Source: an uncultured Clostridia bacterium (GTDB lineage: Bacteria > Bacillota > Clostridia > Christensenellales > UBA1242). From it: a DNA stretch of 64,000 bases. The position numbers and the translations under genes are program-made. Position 1 is the stretch's first letter; every line of letters begins with the position of its first letter. Positions 1 to 58,982 of the stretch are shown piece after piece. Where the stretch lies: the NCBI GenBank assembly GCA_944349515.1, contig CALVNE010000001.1, positions 87,232 to 151,231 of the forward strand. Direction: 5' to 3'. The notes beneath the pieces were generated by a model. It made no database searches and had not been told where the DNA came from. It saw nothing but the letters and a program-made list of their open reading frames with translations.

Positions 1-3000
1 GACGTCGTTTTCCTTGGCGACATTCCTTACATGACCGACGATTGCACTTTCATCATCAACGGCGTCGAAAGAGTTGTTGTCAATCAAATTATCAAGTCGC
101 CAAACTATTATCTTCTTCGCGACAAAAATCAAGACAACTCCACGCTTGTTGGGCAGATTATCCCAAAAAGAGGAATGTATATCGAGGTTAAGCAGGGCGC
201 AAACGAAGTTTTAAACATTGTGCTTGATAGGCGCAACCGCATAACGCTTGGCTTGTTCTTAAAGTGCTTTGGCTACACTGCTGACGAGATAAGTAAACTC
301 TTTGGCGACCATAGACTAGTGAAACACGTGCTGGAAAAAGAAACGCAACAAACCCAAGAAGAGGCGCTTTTGGAATTCGCTAGAAAAACAAGACCTGCCG
401 ACGTGCCTTCCGCAGAGACCACAAGAAATTATTTGAATCTTTGGTTCTTCTCTGACCAATATTACAACCTCTCTCGTGTTGGTAGATACAACTTAAACAA
501 AAAGTTATCCATCGCAACGCGTATAACTGGGCAGGTTTCGGCTGAGGACATCGTTACTGAGGACGGCGAAATTTTGGTAAGGACTGGTCAAGAGATTGAC
601 GCTGAAACGGCAAACAAGGTGAAGGCGAGCGGTATCAACGAAGTTTGGCTTCAACTTCCGGATAAAAAATACCTCGTTCGTGGCAATAACCGCGTGAGAC
701 TAAGCGACGTTTTCCCTTGCGACGAGAAGGAACTTGGCATTTTGGAGGAGGTTTACTATCCTGTTCTCAAACAAATTTTGAAGGACAATAAGTCCAAAGA
801 AAAGAGAATGCAAGTAATTCGTGAGCGCGCAAAGGACCTTATGATAACCACCCTCACCATGGACGATATTTTAGCTTCTATAAGTATGTATCTCGACGTA
901 CTAGAGGGCATTGCAAAGACGGATAAAATTGAGCACCTTTCTAATAAGAGAATAGCAACGTGCGGAGAACTCTTCTATGATCACTTCCGCTCGGGCATAA
1001 CAAAACTTGTTTCAAATGTTAGAGAAACCTTGCAAGGTAAGGAACTTTCCGAGGTAACTCCGCGTCAAATCGTCAACCCGAAGGCGGTAAATAGGGCGCT
1101 ACGCGATTTCGTGGCAACTTCGCAACTTTCGCAGTTTATGGACCAAGTGAATCCGCTTTCCGGTATCACACAAAAGCGCCGTGTTTCGGCTGTCGGTCCT
1201 GGCGGTATCAGAAAGGAAAGAGCGGACGCTGAAGTGCGCGATATTCACTACACCAACTACGGCCGTATCTGCCCTATTGAGACTCCAGAAGGTCAGGCAA
1301 TCGGACTTGTTAACACCATGACAAGTTACGCAAAAATTAACGAGTATGGCTTTCTTGAAACACCTTATCGAAAGGTGGATAAAGAGACTGGAAAGGTTTC
1401 GGATAAGTGCGAATATTATATGGCAGACATCGAAGACACGGCATATATCGCGCAAGCAACCGAGCCACTCGACGAAGAGGGAAGATTTGTCAACAAGAGA
1501 GTTATCTGTCGTCACAAGGACTATGTTGTTGATGTTCCGGCAAGACAGGTTGACTTTGTGGATGCTTCTCCGCGTCAATTCATCTCCGTTGCCACCTCGC
1601 TTATTCCTTTCCTTAACTCCAACGAGGCTAACCGTGCGTTGATGGGTGCAAACATGCAGAGGCAGGCAGTTCCTCTTCTAAGACCGGAAAGCCCGGTTGT
1701 GGGAACGGGTATGGAAGAGGTGGTAGCGCGTGATTCCGGCTACTGCACACTCGCTAAAAACGCCGGCGTTGTGGAATATGTAAGTGCTGACGAGGTTAGA
1801 GTGAAAAATAACGAGGGGACGGTTGATATTTATCCTCTCACAAAATTTGAAAAGACCAATGACGAAACTTGCATTAACCAAAAACCTTGCGTAAAGAAGG
1901 GCGAAAAGGTTAAGAAGGGCGATGTCATAATCGACGGGTATTCTTGCGAAAACGGCGAACTTGCGCTTGGTAAAAACGTGCTTGTTGGCTATATGAACTG
2001 GGAAGGGTACAACTTCGAGGACGCTATCATCATAAACGAGAGGCTGGTTAAAGACGATGTTTACACCTCTATCTGCCTCAAAGTGGAAGAACTTAAATGC
2101 CGAACCACCAAACTTGGCGACGAACAGATTACGCGTGACATTCCAAACCTTGGCGAAGAGGCACTTAAAAACCTCGACGAGAACGGCATTATCCGCGTGG
2201 GCGCCGAGGTTAGACCGGGTGATATCCTTGTTGGTAAGGTTTCACCTAAGGGCGAAACGGAACTTAGTCCTGAAGAGCGACTTCTTCGCGCTATCTTCGG
2301 CGAGAAAGCGAGAGAGGTTAGAGATACTTCCCTTCGCGTGCAACATGGTAAGGGCGGTATTGTTGTGGACGTTCAAGTGTTCTCGCGTAAGAATAAAGAC
2401 GAACTTGAACCGGGCGTCAACGAACTTGTGAAAGTTTTCATTGCACAAAAGAGAAAACTCTCCGTCGGCGACAAGATGAGCGGTCGTTACGGCAATAAGG
2501 GCGTTGTTTCCATTGTTTTGCCAGAGGCAGATATGCCGTTCATGGCGAACGGAAAACCGCTTGACATTGTGCTTAACCCGTTGGGCGTGCCGGCGCGTAT
2601 GAATTTAGGACAGGTACTAGAGGTGCATTTAGGGCTTGTTGCCGGAAGTTTAGGTTGGAAGGTGGCAACTCCGGCGTTCGACGGCGCAGATGTGAATTCC
2701 ATTAAGGAACTTTTGAAAGAAAACAACTTCCCAGAGGACGGCAAAGCGCAACTCTATGACGGTAGAACGGGCGAGCCTTTCGACAACAAAACGACCATTG
2801 GAATTAAGTATATGCTTAAACTTAACCACATGGTTGACAGCAAAGTGCACGCGCGTTCAATCGGACCTTACTCACTTATCACACAACAACCTCTCGGCGG
2901 TAAGGCGTTGTTCGGCGGTCAGAGATTCGGCGAAATGGAAGTTTGGGCGCTTGAGGCGTACGGCGCAAGCCATGTTCTTCAAGAAATGCTCACTGTGAAA

Positions 3001-3381
3001 TCCGACGATGTGACCGGGCGTGTTAGAACCTTCGAGGCAATCGTGAAGGGCGAACCGATATCCGAGCCGGGCATTCCAGAGTCCTTCAAAGTTTTGGTAA
3101 AAGAATTGCAAGCACTTGCGCTTGATGTGAAGATTTTAACCGAAAACGACGAGGAAATCGACTTGCCAGAACTCTCACAAGACGAACACGATAAACCTTC
3201 CATGGCTCAAGATGTTGAGAAAGACCTAAAGAACGTCACAATCGACCTAGACGAACTTATTAATAGTGACGGCGAGGAAGAAAAGAAGAGCGATATTGAA
3301 GAGGCTATCGACGAGCAAACGTCCACACAAGGCATTGATGATATTGATTTGTTCGATGATTTTGGGGACTTTGAAGAGTAA
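1..3381 (+). CDS. rpoB: DNA-directed RNA polymerase subunit beta (5' end lies outside the window)
   Basis: Frame 1 is open from nt 1 (DVVFLGDIPYMTDDCTFIINGVERVVV). RpoB hallmarks are present: GPGGIRKERA, NMQRQAVP, SGRYGNKGVVS, GGQRFGEMEVWALEAYGA. The C-terminal tail is acidic. Confidence 0.97.
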   Translation, partial: DVVFLGDIPYMTDDCTFIINGVERVVVNQIIKSPNYYLLRDKNQDNSTLVGQIIPKRGMYIEVKQGANEVLNIVLDRRNRITLGLFLKCFGYTADEISKLFGDHRLVKHVLEKETQQTQEEALLEFARKTRPADVPSAETTRNYLNLWFFSDQYYNLSRVGRYNLNKKLSIATRITGQVSAEDIVTEDGEILVRTGQEIDAETANKVKASGINEVWLQLPDKKYLVRGNNRVRLSDVFPCDEKELGILEEVYYPVLKQILKDNKSKEKRMQVIRERAKDLMITTLTMDDILASISMYLDVLEGIAKTDKIEHLSNKRIATCGELFYDHFRSGITKLVSNVRETLQGKELSEVTPRQIVNPKAVNRALRDFVATSQLSQFMDQVNPLSGITQKRRVSAVGPGGIRKERADAEVRDIHYTNYGRICPIETPEGQAIGLVNTMTSYAKINEYGFLETPYRKVDKETGKVSDKCEYYMADIEDTAYIAQATEPLDEEGRFVNKRVICRHKDYVVDVPARQVDFVDASPRQFISVATSLIPFLNSNEANRALMGANMQRQAVPLLRPESPVVGTGMEEVVARDSGYCTLAKNAGVVEYVSADEVRVKNNEGTVDIYPLTKFEKTNDETCINQKPCVKKGEKVKKGDVIIDGYSCENGELALGKNVLVGYMNWEGYNFEDAIIINERLVKDDVYTSICLKVEELKCRTTKLGDEQITRDIPNLGEEALKNLDENGIIRVGAEVRPGDILVGKVSPKGETELSPEERLLRAIFGEKAREVRDTSLRVQHGKGGIVVDVQVFSRKNKDELEPGVNELVKVFIAQKRKLSVGDKMSGRYGNKGVVSIVLPEADMPFMANGKPLDIVLNPLGVPARMNLGQVLEVHLGLVAGSLGWKVATPAFDGADVNSIKELLKENNFPEDGKAQLYDGRTGEPFDNKTTIGIKYMLKLNHMVDSKVHARSIGPYSLITQQPLGGKALFGGQRFGEMEVWALEAYGASHVLQEMLTVKSDDVTGRVRTFEAIVKGEPISEPGIPESFKVLVKELQALALDVKILTENDEEIDLPELSQDEHDKPSMAQDVEKDLKNVTIDLDELINSDGEEEKKSDIEEAIDEQTSTQGIDDIDLFDDFGDFEE

Positions 3382-3394
3382 TTAACTTTTCTAG

Positions 3395-3483
3395 TGTAGA
3401 AAAGCTACAAAAGACGCCGGGGAGTTTCGATTCTCCCCGGAGCCCCTGCAAACGACTTACTTTAAAAAAGTAAGCAAAAAGTG
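3395..3483 (+). repeat. Copy 1 of a ~90-nt three-hairpin module, in the rpoB 3' UTR
   Basis: Hairpin A: TGTAG-aaaag-CTACA (3395-3409). Hairpin B: CCGGGGAG-tttcgatt-CTCCCCGG (3417-3440). Hairpin C: CTTACTTT-aaa-AAAGTAAG (3456-3474). About 75 nt are near-identical to 3631-3706. Confidence 0.8.
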
Positions 3484-3558
3484 AGAAAATAAACTTATTG
3501 TTTAGATATAATCAACCTTTCAGTTTTAAGTTTTAAATTATAGGTTAAAATTTTAATA

Positions 3559-3587
3559 TTGACATTCAAAAATGTAGGGTATATAAT
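3559..3587 (+). promoter_or_regulatory. Sigma-A type promoter, TTGACA-17-TATAAT
   Basis: TTGACA at 3559-3564, an exact 17-nt spacer, and TATAAT at 3582-3587. It lies between the two module copies. Confidence 0.6.
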
Positions 3588-3613
3588 AAATGCAAGACTA
3601 AAATTTAAACTTT

Positions 3614-3707
3614 TGTAGCGCCCAAAAGTTACAAAAGACATTGGGGAGTTTCGATTCTCCCCGGAGCCCCTGCAAACGACTTACTTTAAAAAAGTAAGCA
3701 AAAGTGG
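3614..3707 (+). repeat. Copy 2 of the three-hairpin module, in the 5' UTR of the orphan ORF
   Basis: It has the same three hairpins as copy 1. In stem B, CC becomes TT, which still pairs as U.G with the 3' GG. In stem A, CTACA becomes TTACA, which pairs as G.U. Confidence 0.8.
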
Positions 3708-3909
3708 TGTTTTTAAATTAAGAAATTGTTAAAAACAAAAAAAATATATTAACTGTTTGTTGTGGCAAAAAAGGATAGGATTTATACAAGCAACCTACTT
3801 TTTAGAAAAGCAAGCAAAGCGGTTGGCTAAACTTAATTTTAAAAAACTTTTGTTTTTGAGAGTTTAAATGGGTTAGGTTGGAATTATTTTGAACAAAGGA
3901 GGATAGGTG

Positions 3910-4350
3910 ATGGAACTGAATTCGCATGATAAGGTTTTCATACGAGTTTTTGATGTTGAAAAGGGCCGGTGTTTTACCCATTACCACCCGCGCGACAAGG
4001 TGTTTACCTACTTTTCCTCCGACGATGTGTTTGAAGAGTTTAAAGAGAGCGAAGGTAAATCGTTCCTACCCTCCGAACACATGAAGCCTAAAAAGCAAAC
4101 CATGCAAACAATATACTGTAGCCAAAGAACAGAAGATTTTTTGAAAGACCGTTTTGATGAATATGTGGAAAATTATCCGTACTTCGGCAGTGAACTAAAG
4201 AAATATTTTCCAAATAAAGTGCCAATTTTTGGCGAGAATTATACCGAATATCAACTTATGCATTTCATGATGTTTGTGGAAACAGAGATTGACAAGTGCG
4301 AACGGCGCTCTCGCGAGGTGATTCTTAACGAAAACAGTCGCGTGCTGTGA
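3910..4350 (+). CDS. Hypothetical protein (146 aa) inserted between rpoB and rpoC
   Basis: AAGGAGG at 3896-3902 lies 7 nt before the ATG at 3910. The ORF is clean. I recognise no family. Confidence 0.6.
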   Translation: MELNSHDKVFIRVFDVEKGRCFTHYHPRDKVFTYFSSDDVFEEFKESEGKSFLPSEHMKPKKQTMQTIYCSQRTEDFLKDRFDEYVENYPYFGSELKKYFPNKVPIFGENYTEYQLMHFMMFVETEIDKCERRSREVILNENSRVL

Positions 4351-4450: not shown

Positions 4451-7400
4451 ATGTTTGAACTTAATAACTTTGAAAAAATTAAAATTGGGCTTGCTTCGCC
4501 AGAGAAGATTAGAGAATGGTCTCATGGTGAGGTGACAAAGCCGGAAACTATCAACTATCGCACGCAAAAGCCAGAAAAGGACGGCTTGTTCTGCGAGAGA
4601 ATTTTCGGACCTAAGAAGGACTGGGAATGCCACTGCGGTAAGTATAAGAAAATTCGCTATCGTGGCGTTATCTGCGATAAGTGTGGCGTAGAGGTGACGC
4701 GTAGCAAGGTGCGCCGTGAAAGAATGGGGCATATTGAACTTGCTTGCCCAGTTACCCACCTTTGGTATTTCAGAACGGTGCCATCTCGCATTGGTATGCT
4801 TCTTGACCTTACTCCAAAAACCTTGGAGCAAGTGGTTTATTATATCAATTACATCGTAACAGACCCTAAATCTACCGACCTTGAATACAAACAAATTTTG
4901 AACGATAAAGAATATCGCGACGCCATTGAAAAATACGGTGCGGGCAGTTTTGAGGCTGGCATGGGCGCTGAGGCTATTAAGAAACTTCTTGGCGATGTTG
5001 ACCTTGAAAGAGAGGCGAAGGAGTTAAAAGAGGAACTTAAAAACTCTAAGGGTCAAAGAAAAATTAAGGCGGCTAAGAAACTTGATATCGTTGAGTCGTT
5101 TAGAAAGAGTGGAAACAACCCAACTTGGATGGTGCTTGATGTTATCCCTGTCCTTCCACCAGACCTTCGTCCTATGGTGCCACTCGACGGCGGAAGATAT
5201 GCCACAAGTGATTTGAACGACCTATACCGCAGAGTTATCAACAGAAATAACCGCTTGAAAAAACTTATCGAACTTGGCGCGCCAGATGTCATCTGCCGTA
5301 ACGAAAAAAGAATGCTTCAAGAGGCGGTTGACAATCTTATCGACAACGGTAAGCGCGGTAAGGCCGTTCAAGGCTCAAAGCAAAGAGATTTGAAGTCGCT
5401 TTCCGCTATGCTCAGCGGTAAGCAAGGGCGCTTCAGGCAAAACCTTCTTGGTAAGCGTGTCGACTACTCCGGCCGTTCGGTTATCGTGGTTGGACCAGAA
5501 CTTAAAATTTATCAGTGCGGACTTCCTAAAGAAATGGCACTTGAACTTTTCAAGCCTTTCATTATGAACAGACTTGTTGAAATGAATTTAACAAACAACA
5601 TCAAAACCGCAAAGCGCATGATTGAGCGCGAAAAACCGGTTGTTTGGGATATCCTTGCTGACGTCATAAAAGACCACCCAGTGCTTTTAAACCGCGCTCC
5701 GACTTTGCACCGTCTTTCTGTGCAAGCGTTCGAACCGGTGCTTGTTGAGGGCAAGGCGATAAAACTTCACCCGTCCGCGTGCGCCGCTTTCAACGCTGAC
5801 TTCGACGGCGACCAAATGCCTGTTCATATTCCACTTTCTATTGACGCTAGAACAGAGGCAAGAACTTTGATGCTTGCTTCGAATAACATCTTAAAACTTT
5901 CCGACGGCGAGGCGATTGTCAGCCCGTCGCAGGATATCGTGCTTGGCTGTTACTATTTGACTCTTGTGCGTCCGGGGGCTAAGGGCGAAGGGAGCATTTA
6001 TGCGTCTAGAAACGAGATGATTTATGCTTATCAAACCAAAAATCTTGACCTTCAAGCGGAGTGCACCGTTCGTCTTACCAAAACATATAATGGCAAGACC
6101 TACACCAAGCGCGTGACAACCACCGTGGGTAGGGTGCTATTTAACAACATTATTCCGCAAGACCTTGGCTATGTTGACAGAACAAAAGAGGAGAACATCT
6201 GCGAACTTGAAATCAACAAGCCGGTTATGAAGAATGAACTTAAAAACCTTGTCGGCGATGTATACGACAAGTTTGGCACCACCGCAACGGCGGAACTTGT
6301 TGATAACCTCAAAGAAATTGGATATAAATATTCCACACTCGCTTCTATCTCTGTCAACATTTATGACATAGAGGAGCCAAAAGAGAAAAAAGAGATTATG
6401 AAAGAGGCTGAGGACCAAGTACTTGAAAATGAAAAACTTTTGAACCGTGGTCTTATCACCTTGAACGAAAAATTGGATGCTAACATCGACATTTGGAAGC
6501 ATGCGGTTAATGAAGTACAAGATGCGGTTGTGAAGTCTCTCGACCAATTCAACCCATTTTCACTTATGGTGCTTTCTGGCGCGCGTGGTAACACAGTGCA
6601 GTTGAACAGTGACTGCGGTATGATTGGTATTAAATCAACGGCTTCCGGAACAAAGATTGACACACCTATCAAGTCCTCGTTTAGGCAAGGGCTTACTCCT
6701 ATTGAGTATTTCGTCAACTCTCGTGGTTCCAGAAAAGGTTTGTCCGACACGGCGCTTAAAACCGCTGACTCCGGTTATCTCACAAGAAGACTTGTTGATG
6801 TTGCGCAAGATGTTGTGATAACAAGTGAAGACTGCTTTGCAGAAACCGGCGAGAAGATTAAGGGCGTCACTGTCACTGACCTTGTAACCGACGGTTTCGT
6901 TCAAGAGACTTTGGCGGAGAGAATCTATGGCCGTGTTGCAGTTGAAGATATTGTAAACCCTAAGACGAAAGAGATTATCGTTCGCTCCAACGAGATGATA
7001 ACGAAAGAGCAAGCAAGTGCCATCACAAAGGCGGGCATTAAGGAAGTTCAAATCCGCTCGCTCATCACTTGCCGTTGCAAGCACGGCGTTTGTGCTAAGT
7101 GCTATGGCAGAAATATGGCTGGAAAGGATATTGTTTCGCTTGGTGAAGCGGTTGGTATCATTGCCGCTCAGTCTATCGGCGAACCGGGTACCCAACTTAC
7201 CATGAGAACCTTCCACACCGGTGGTTCCGCGGTGGCTGCCGACATCACTCAAGGTTTGCCGAGAGTTGAGGAAATCTTTGAGGCAAGAAAACCTAAGGGC
7301 GAGTGCTTGCTTTCCGAAGTGTCTGGTAAAGTTCATATCAGAGAGGACGCTAAAAATTACACCATTACCATTTTGACCGGCGAAGGCGACATTGATTACG

Positions 7401-7981
7401 AGGTTAGAAAGCCGGCAGTTTTGAAGGTGAAAGAGGGCGAGAGCGTTGAACCGGGCACGCAGTTAACAGGCGGCGCAATCAACCCAACCGACCTCTTGCG
7501 CACTAAGGGTCTTAAAGGACTTGAGCAATACCTCTTAAGCGAAGTTATTAAAGTTTATCGTGGGCAGGACGTTAAGGTTAACGATAAGCACATTGAAATT
7601 ATCATTCGTCAGATGCTGAAAAAAGTTAAGATTGAGGACTCTGGCGACACCAACTTGTTGACAGGCGAAATTGTTGACATCTCGCACTGCGACGAAGAGA
7701 ATGAGAGAGTGTTAAGAGAGGGTGGACGCCCAGCCATTGCAAGAAGAATGCTTCTCGGCATCACAAGGGCGGCGCTCATGACGGAATCTTTCCTATCTTC
7801 CTCTTCCTTCCAGGAGACATCAAGAGTGCTTACCGACGCGGCGCTTAAGGGCAAGGTGGATAACCTTGTTGGTATCAAAGAAAATGTCATCATCGGTAAA
7901 CTTATCCCAGCGGGTACCGGACTTAAAAAATATCGTTCGGTTGTGCCTGTTAAGGTGGATAGCGAAGAAACAGCAATTTAA
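4451..7981 (+). CDS. rpoC: DNA-directed RNA polymerase subunit beta'
   Basis: 1176 aa. It has a zinc-finger [23 protein letters not shown], the catalytic NADFDGDQM motif, and the conserved C-terminal GKLIPAGTG. Confidence 0.98.
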
Positions 7982-18080: not shown

Positions 18081-18109
18081 TTGACAAGAGGATGCGGAAT
18101 AGGTATAAT
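18081..18109 (+). promoter_or_regulatory. Perfect consensus promoter, TTGACA-17-TATAAT
   Basis: TTGACA at 18081-18086 and TATAAT at 18104-18109. Confidence 0.7.
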
Positions 18110-18265: not shown

Positions 18266-18290
18266 GACGCGAAATTTCGCGTCTTTTTTT
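18266..18290 (+). terminator. Intrinsic terminator inside the rpsL leader
   Basis: GACGCGAAATTTCGCGTC is a 9-bp perfect palindrome followed by T7. It lies about 97 nt before the rpsL start. Confidence 0.75.
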
Positions 18291-58856: not shown

Positions 58857-58982
58857 TATCCATAGAGAGTGTGCGAGGGACAGCCCCTTTGACCACACAG
58901 CAACCTACATTTTGCAAGGTGCTAATGGCTGACCGATGGTGCTTTAAAAATTTATTTAACCATCGGAAACGATGGTTTTTTC
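58857..58982 (+). promoter_or_regulatory. SAM-I (S-box) riboswitch with terminator
   Basis: The aptamer reads CCATAGAGAGTGTGCGAGGGACAGCCCCTTTGACCACACAGCAACC...AGGTGCTAATGG...CGATGG. The terminator AACCATCG-gaaa-CGATGGTT plus T-run lies at 58958-58981. It sits upstream of metK. Confidence 0.9.

Follow-up and report, generated by a model that had tools for sequence, protein, structure and literature searches.

A duplicated three-hairpin module directly downstream of rpoB in an uncultured Clostridia bacterium belongs to an undescribed family whose general kind, the conserved structured intergenic element, is already known. Unusual for such elements are its pseudoknot, its apparent punctuation of operons, its sharing between phages and hosts, and its strain-level mosaicism. 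The best explanation, to which we assign a probability of roughly 0.4, is that the module is a co-transcribed, sense-strand RNA element that would punctuate operons for mRNA processing or stability. This reading is based on a loop-tail pseudoknot with compensatory changes and unpaired nucleotides that are invariant in sequences from 30% to 60% GC, on the location of the module immediately past stop codons and in sense orientation at 9 of 10 independent positions (1 antisense), and on its placement between genes that need to be co-transcribed (rpoB-rpoC, dnaK-dnaJ, and phage head genes).

The module pair between rpoB and rpoC

A repeat search of the window, the 64-kb stretch of DNA analyzed here, delimits two 96-nt copies at 3384-3479 and 3608-3703 that are 91% identical and start 224 nt apart, with similarity extending to about 3485/3709 and including a 1-nt indel. 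A sequence-only reading of the window had located the same pair at coordinates falling within these limits (3395-3483 and 3614-3707) and described it as a duplicated three-hairpin module; this observation is confirmed, except that its spacing of 219 to 224 nt is replaced by a true spacing of 224 nt. The predicted fold of either copy contains three hairpins (z about -3.5 and -3.7). Shuffles lead one to expect zero occurrences of a 38-nt core that the window contains exactly twice. With a covariance model, the copies reach 94 and 91 bits, the next match reaches 18 bits, and there is no third copy within 64 kb. With two adjacent copies in 64 kb, a high-copy dispersed repeat is ruled out for the window.

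Copy 1 occupies the 3' UTR of rpoB (31-3381, plus strand; stop codon 3379-3381), as had been proposed, and its hairpin A (3384-3406; 5' arm 3384-3393, loop GTG 3394-3396, 3' arm 3397-3406) begins 2 nt past the stop codon. A C at 3405, specific to the window strain, creates an A.C mismatch in this stem. Hairpin A is followed by an unpaired linker, ACAAAAGAC (3407-3415), which is invariant across all bacterial copies and, together with the preceding U (UACAAAAGAC), is similar to the tail ahead of hairpin C. The GC-rich hairpin B (3417-3440) consists of CC-GGGGAG, the loop TTTCGATT (3425-3432), and CTCCCC-GG, and precedes a C-rich tail, AGCCCCTGC plus AAACGA (3441-3455). The CGA of this tail (3453-3455) is proposed to pair with UCG in the loop of hairpin B (3427-3429), forming a pseudoknot. 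Hairpin C (3456-3474; CTTACTTT-AAA-AAAGTAAG) ends the module and is followed by CAAAA. The same order is repeated on the plus strand in copy 2 (3608-3698), which comprises hairpin A2 (3608-3630), with its eighth pair swapped to G-C and a 7-nt loop, the linker (3631-3639), hairpin B2 (3641-3664), with UU facing GG, the tail (3665-3679), and hairpin C2 (3680-3698). The repeat search also recovered a degenerate extra block of tail and hairpin C at 3785-3819 on the plus strand (TACAAGCAAC-CTACTTTTTAGAAAAGCAAG-CAAAG). Second blocks of this type are likewise present 100 to 300 nt 3' of the module in L015 (an exact 30-nt repeat), L014, L034, and L035.

The AT-rich spacer between the copies (3480-3607), for which a similarity search found no similar sequence elsewhere, carries a sigma-70-type promoter. 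This is a perfect TTGACA-17-TATAAT at 3559-3587 on the plus strand (-35 at 3559-3564, -10 at 3582-3587), with an expected start site at about 3594. Copy 2 begins about 13 nt further downstream; both the consensus promoter and the assignment of copy 2 to the leader of an orphan open reading frame (ORF) hold as originally described. The ORF encodes 146 amino acids (aa) (3910-4350, plus strand; Shine-Dalgarno AAAGGAGG at 3895-3902) and lies 3' of the modules, ahead of rpoC (4451-7981, plus strand). A minus-strand promoter-like site at 3537-3565 (10/12) overlaps the -35 box of the perfect promoter and is aimed into copy 1; it may be a chance match in the AT-rich spacer. A second perfect consensus promoter is present in the window at 18081-18109 (plus strand).

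Recurrence in Clostridia and phages

When 185,579 species genomes were scanned with a degenerate pattern, six matches emerged from five Clostridia MAGs, with one or two exact-pattern matches per MAG; Candidatus Caccovivens faecavium is among the five. All six begin 0 to 10 nt past the stop codon of a same-strand gene, namely rpoB (L014), dnaK (L013, L015, and L017), tex (L012), or a class A PBP gene (L016). Further copies after dnaK and rpoB are present in a strain contig (L005) and in metagenome contigs (L018 and L019), and the host range comprises several uncultured Clostridia (Candidatus Caccovivens and relatives). The distance of 0 to 10 nt from a stop codon holds for every bacterial copy. 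The 70-nt core is 86% to 96% identical across species, compared to 74% to 83% for the upstream coding sequences and about 50% for the next 100 nt. The six closest relatives with the same rpoB C-terminal tail lack the module and have rpoB-rpoC spacers of just 17 to 71 nt, which rules out an ancestral rpoB-rpoC regulator. The module at rpoB is a lineage-specific gain and also a recombination hot spot. A miniature inverted-repeat transposable element (MITE) was also rejected as a candidate; the inverted repeats are internal hairpins only, and the flanks of eight loci share no duplication, with a weak A-N-T preference ahead of AAC.

Scans of viral contigs revealed GC-rich versions of the module in gaps between phage head genes. 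These have an outer stem (CCCAGAGGG/CCCUCUGG or CCUAGGGGAG/CUCCCCUAGG, the two forms covarying) that carries an apical hairpin B with the same loop, followed by a C-rich strand, (U/G)(A/G)CAAA(C/U)GACC, and a GC-rich hairpin C. The sites in L026, L029, and L055 are located between head-region genes, with the element in sense orientation throughout. In L029 they come after ORFs of 145, 466, and 148 aa and after the major head gene. PHROG matches identify portal and major head genes in L026 only, and the roles of the other ORFs were guessed from size and order. Contig L027 contains a sense copy with an inverted copy 180 nt from it, as well as a half copy that diverges past TTTCGATTCT. The repeats of this contig (400-470, 3787, 3970, and 835-963) also include an inverted repeat of about 65 bp, formed by left halves of the module, around a primase/helicase block, and three 64-nt tandem repeats that are possible iterons. 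In L028 (11-61) and L031 (525-574) the same outer stem (CCCAGAGGGGGCUG...CAGCCCCCUCUGGAC) encloses a different apical sequence, and the outer stem may thus be a separate, reusable block.

Searches of the window and of the bacterial and phage loci against Rfam 15 at permissive thresholds produced only noise, in agreement with the sequence-only reading, in which the motif had not been recognized. The best match on the module, to the leu/phe leader, scores 20.5 bits against a gathering score of 70 and is on the opposite strand, and the phage copies have no Rfam match. ARAGORN called no tRNA, tmRNA, or tRNA-like structure on the module. A resemblance to a tRNA T-arm was rejected, since the loop has 8 nt versus the 7 nt of UUCRANY and its positions 3 to 5 form Watson-Crick pairs with the tail in place of a T-loop/D-loop contact. 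Neither GenBank phages nor PLSDB plasmids gave a BLAST match to the bacterial or the phage versions, and a literature search for the core sequences found nothing.

Pairing, tandem units, and mosaic alleles

The sequence-only reading had staked its interpretation on homologs that show covariation; both were found, and that interpretation is partly supported. Covariation supports all three hairpins. Pairing holds in 98% of cells across 20 distinct bacterial sequences, and two-sided changes are present in hairpins A and B. The eighth pair of hairpin A switches between C-G and G-C (a split of 9 to 8 sequences), the outer pairs of hairpin B covary between CG and UA via UG intermediates, and the loop-closing pairs of hairpin B covary in the phage copies. 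The supported form of stem A is AACUUUU(C/G)...(G/C)AAAAGUU; the change of C to U opposite G that had been read in this stem relied on a GUAG/CUAC pairing that lacks support in the family. Hairpin C always starts directly past AAACG(A/C), while its sequence varies greatly, with other sequences substituted in L012, L013, L016, and every phage copy.

The pseudoknot joins the hairpin B loop, U1 U2 N3 C4 R5 A6 U7 U8 (UUNCRAUU), to the tail, A1 A2 A3 Y4 G5 N6 (AAAYGN), via the core pairs N3-N6, C4-G5, and R5-Y4 and the flanking pairs U7-A2 and U8-A1. We counted pairs in 14 distinct loop/tail combinations, with the two segments concatenated and the linker removed. The N3-N6 pair is UA in 10 combinations, GC in 2, and CG in 1, and the remaining combination has it broken; 13 combinations have CG at C4-G5, which is broken in the other; and R5-Y4 is divided between GC (11) and AU (3). 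Pairing holds in 97% of all cells, and two of the three core pairs have compensatory changes (four sequence types), compared to zero two-sided changes in control registers slid by 1 to 3 columns. Compensatory cases are UUGCGAUU with AAACGC (L013 and L016), UUUCAAUU with AAAUGA (L029 at 932, and L053), and UUCCAAUU with AAAUGG (L029 at 2992). L055a, from the same phage subfamily, has nonetheless kept G with C, and the pseudoknot is broken in two variants (L017, and L008/L011).

Because the compensatory pairs are all Watson-Crick, they do not identify the strand, and both strands of the module fold. Sense G.U pairs are present in hairpin B of copy 2, in L026a, in L053, in the outer stem of L029_5402, and in hairpin C of L019, while sense A.C mismatches are present in hairpin A of copy 1, in the outer stem of L027, and possibly in L055a; these counts would at most weakly favor the sense strand. 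The substitution that places UU opposite GG in stem B of copy 2 is real, although its use as an argument for RNA-level selection is weak, since recombination between two module types can yield such pairs and A.C cases occur on the plus strand as well. A GU-rich antisense helix (UGUAGGGG/GUCUUUUGUA) predicted by RNAalifold was discarded as a family feature, its partner strand being missing in the phage copies.

Same-species contigs (99% identical), fetched through the protein cluster of the orphan ORF, show that the module and its promoter-bearing spacer form a 224-bp tandem unit with an assembled copy number of 1 to 3 among near-identical strains. There is one unit between rpoB and the ORF in L009, two in the window, L001, L006, and L007, and three in L002 and L008, and every additional unit carries its own promoter copy. 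Two module types are present, one with hairpin A CUAGNGUAG and GCC...GGAG around hairpin B and the other with hairpin A GUAGCGCCC and AUU...AAA around hairpin B, along with recombinants of the two. Copy 2 of the window looks like such a recombinant, with a left half of the AUU...AAA type and a right half of the GCC...GGAG type. This would explain its UU-opposite-GG pairs without stepwise compensatory change, and these wobble pairs may therefore have come from recombination. The single-copy contig L009 may be due to short-read collapse. L005, in which hrcA-grpE-dnaK is joined directly to module-ORF-rpoC (1-3441), is probably an assembly chimera through the shared repeat; as possible assembly artefacts, neither contig is firm evidence, although L005 nonetheless shows a module directly after dnaK in the window species.

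Strains similar to Ca. Caccovivens faecavium have at least three mosaic alleles of the rpoB-ORF spacer. One allele has an intact module followed by a 61-aa ORF; in L035 this ORF (1190-1375) has its own Shine-Dalgarno sequence, lies between the intact module and the second hairpin C block, and looks like a small inserted cassette. Two others retain hairpin A, the linker, and GGGGAGTTTCGATT and then change to a hairpin-rich segment of about 250 nt (L034-L047). The same segment is present at the dnaK site of L018 (220-468, reverse strand), which is otherwise 99% identical to L015, where the module is intact, and in L019 (495-720). In one and the same organism, the segment thereby takes the place of the module's right half at rpoB as well as at dnaK. 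The segment consists of GGCGAAAAC...GUUUUCGCC with a variable inner hairpin, GCGACCAAACGAAAUCGC, CCUAAAAAUG...CAUUUUUAGG, and the palindrome GTCGCGAC, and its junctions recur at CGATT. It has no match in Rfam, and its identification as a phage or mobile element was rejected, the sole viral match being a chance one inside a coding region. The variable 224-bp tandem repeat, the recurrence after dnaK, tex, and the PBP gene and in phages, the pseudoknot, and the absence from the nearest rpoB relatives were all missing from the sequence-only reading.

Candidate functions

As a punctuation element, the module would cut a long operon mRNA into separately stabilized messages. An endonuclease, or the RNA itself, would cleave in or near the conserved single-stranded "A-rich...G-AC" stretches such as the linker. 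Hairpin A would then cap the 3' end of the upstream message and hairpin B or C the 5' end of the downstream one, so that neighboring cistrons would have separate stabilities. The preferred cleavage site of RNase Y lies after a G in single-stranded, A/U-rich RNA beside a hairpin. The arrangement of a hairpin, a single-stranded A-rich stretch ending in G-AC, and another hairpin occurs twice in the bacterial version, with UACAAAAGAC before hairpin B and UACAAACGAC, the end of the C-rich tail, before hairpin C, and this repeated anatomy is suggestive of a processing cassette. At rpoB, copy 1 would act as the 3' UTR of rpoB and copy 2 as the leader of a promoter-driven ORF-rpoC transcript, with the number of 224-bp units shifting by unequal recombination.

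Transcription has to read through the module, given that no promoter lies between the module and rpoC or dnaJ in L014, L017, and L019 and that there is no sense U-tract. On the plus strand the hairpins are followed by GGAGCCCC or CAAAA and never by a U-run, so they are not simple intrinsic terminators, as had been noted from the window. Canonical terminators are used elsewhere in this genome, for example after rpoC (8043) and at 18266-18283 (plus strand). Several findings count against punctuation. Hairpin B and the tail are replaced in most of the Ca. Caccovivens faecavium-like contigs, which implies that the module is dispensable at the rpoB locus; breakpoints cluster at the hairpin B loop, as at a DNA recombination site; among the phage copies, one is inverted; the pseudoknot is disrupted in two variants; none of the six nearest rpoB relatives carries the element; and the antisense hairpins B and C each precede a conserved GUC(G/U)UUUGUA with a terminator-like score.

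Known systems share parts of this picture. The REP and BIME elements of enterobacteria are likewise hairpin-rich, extragenic, co-transcribed with the upstream gene, and located after stop codons or between cistrons, and they also vary between strains as mosaic combinations of blocks; the module has the same 3' location and mosaic arrangement. REPs protect upstream mRNA from 3' exonucleases, and REP/BIME elements have an associated RAYT (TnpA-REP) gene. In contrast to REP/BIME, which are present in tens to hundreds of copies per genome, there are two modules in 64 kb, and the module is longer, with three hairpins, invariant unpaired linkers, and a loop-tail pseudoknot, and also occurs in phages. 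Intercistronic processing sites, such as those of RNase III in T7 and of RNase Y in cggR-gapA of B. subtilis and sae of S. aureus, are similarly located between co-transcribed genes (in phages, past highly expressed ones) and combine a single-stranded cut site next to a hairpin with hairpins that stabilize the products. Such sites are not known to have a pseudoknot or to be conserved in sequence between unrelated genes, whereas the same sequence of about 75 nt is reused at unrelated loci by the module.

The main rival, which we consider possible though not probable, places the function in the DNA. Hairpin B would be a recombinase or hairpin-nicking (HUH) site with inverted arms of 6 to 9 bp around the 8-bp asymmetric spacer TTTCGATT, the modules would be ends or scars of a small mobile or cassette-like element, conservation would reflect enzyme recognition, and the sense orientation would be a bias relative to replication. 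This would account for the lineage-specific insertion of module and orphan ORF where relatives have 17 to 71 nt, for the assembled copy number of 1 to 3, and for the occurrence of the element in phages and hosts alike. Mosaic and half copies (L018, L019, L034-L047, and L027 at 457) are alike up to ...TTTCGATT and then diverge, CGATT recurs at further block junctions, and the dnaK and rpoB copies of one genome share a variant, suggesting concerted change. Tyrosine recombinase core sites (dif, lox, and att in tRNA T-loops) resemble the module in their inverted arms and asymmetric spacer of 6 to 8 bp, in variant alleles that diverge at the spacer edge, and in the T-loop-like loop (UUCGAUU with an extra U); half copies of the module diverge directly past CGATT, with partner arms unlike CTCCCC. 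Hairpins A and C and the pseudoknot, however, have no known role at such sites, and double-stranded DNA would not readily account for a loop-tail pseudoknot with compensatory changes. Terminal inverted repeats and target duplications are absent, and no recombinase or transposase gene was seen adjoining any copy. Low copy number and orthologous positions after dnaK and rpoB in species with 77% to 92% gene identity also speak against a DNA-level element, and ordinary homologous recombination between repeats would equally place breakpoints at the edge of the conserved block.

The remaining readings retain a function in RNA. That the hairpin, the loop-tail pseudoknot, and the second hairpin form the catalytic core of a new class of self-cleaving ribozyme, cutting mRNA without protein, is doubtful. 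The topology resembles that of pistol (RF02679), in which a hairpin loop is pseudoknotted with a downstream strand and a second helix follows; pistol is small, has conserved unpaired nucleotides, and occurs in Firmicutes and phage-like contexts. The invariance of unpaired nucleotides from 30% to 60% GC is consistent with catalysis, as are multiple copies in phage operons and intergenic positions in bacteria, which are frequent for known small ribozymes. The likeness to pistol is nevertheless one of form, with a shorter pseudoknot (3 core pairs, or 5 with the flanking A-U pairs) and other conserved nucleotides, and even at E<=10 there is no match to any known ribozyme model, pistol included. 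Many conserved motifs with a pseudoknot are non-catalytic, and cleavage here is a prediction. At a similarly low level of expectation, the module could be a small self-cleaving ribozyme of a new class, or else be targeted specifically by a dedicated RNase, and punctuate polycistronic mRNAs of gut Clostridia and their phages past stop codons, in the manner of tRNA punctuation of mitochondrial transcripts; as a portable processing cassette, it would spread from locus to locus and pass between phage and host. Quite doubtful, too, is a set of intrinsic terminators in the antisense direction that would insulate against transcription into the upstream gene and be neutral to sense transcription. Read on the minus strand, hairpin B' leads into GUCUUUUGU and hairpin C' into UCGUUUGU, with the terminator pattern in the window, L014, L017, and L026 (hairpin B' is flagged, and in phage also hairpin C'; these are predictions with interrupted U-tracts), and in L016 the adjoining gene is convergent. 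Most sites are, however, between co-directional genes with no antisense gene, both U-tracts (GUCUUUUGU and UCGUUUGU) are interrupted, and terminators would not need 90% conservation, a conserved hairpin A, or a pseudoknot. Decidedly unlikely is a trans-acting sRNA with a C-rich seed of the LhrC/RoxS type that pairs with G-rich ribosome-binding sites and derives from the promoter of copy 2 or from 3' UTR processing. The perfect promoter about 13 nt before copy 2 and each extra copy, the unpaired CCCC of the tail, and the AGGGGA Shine-Dalgarno of rpoC in relatives would suit an sRNA, but the tail is partly engaged in the pseudoknot, copies in other species and phages lack a promoter of their own, and there is no sense terminator from 3608 to the ORF. 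A multicopy sRNA was rejected on the same grounds, the promoter serving only the extra copies in this species.

Should its role be in RNA processing or stability, the module would be a portable cassette, reused by phages between head genes, that uncouples neighbors within the central rpoB-rpoC and dnaK-dnaJ operons. It would also offer a compact motif of about 75 nt, with a testable pseudoknot, for studies of mRNA punctuation in uncultured gut Clostridia, and the module is in addition a candidate new ribozyme class. The recombination hot spot directly upstream of rpoC is a source of strain-level variation that includes promoter gain.

The orphan ORF, which has a strong Shine-Dalgarno sequence and is missing from the nearest relatives, forms a single near-identical protein cluster among 5.8 billion sequences. 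A distant homologous family (33% identity; "hypothetical protein IAC38_02835") is present in Ca. Caccovivens faecavium with the same synteny (L019, 801-1226, and L034-L048), for a total of two protein clusters in that collection, and there is no Pfam or PHROG match. The ORF could encode a lineage-specific RNA polymerase-associated protein, or it could be cargo brought in with the module. Other RNA features of the window are a SAM riboswitch at 58857-58942 (plus strand) and a tRNA-Thr(CGU) gene at 25965-26040 (minus strand).
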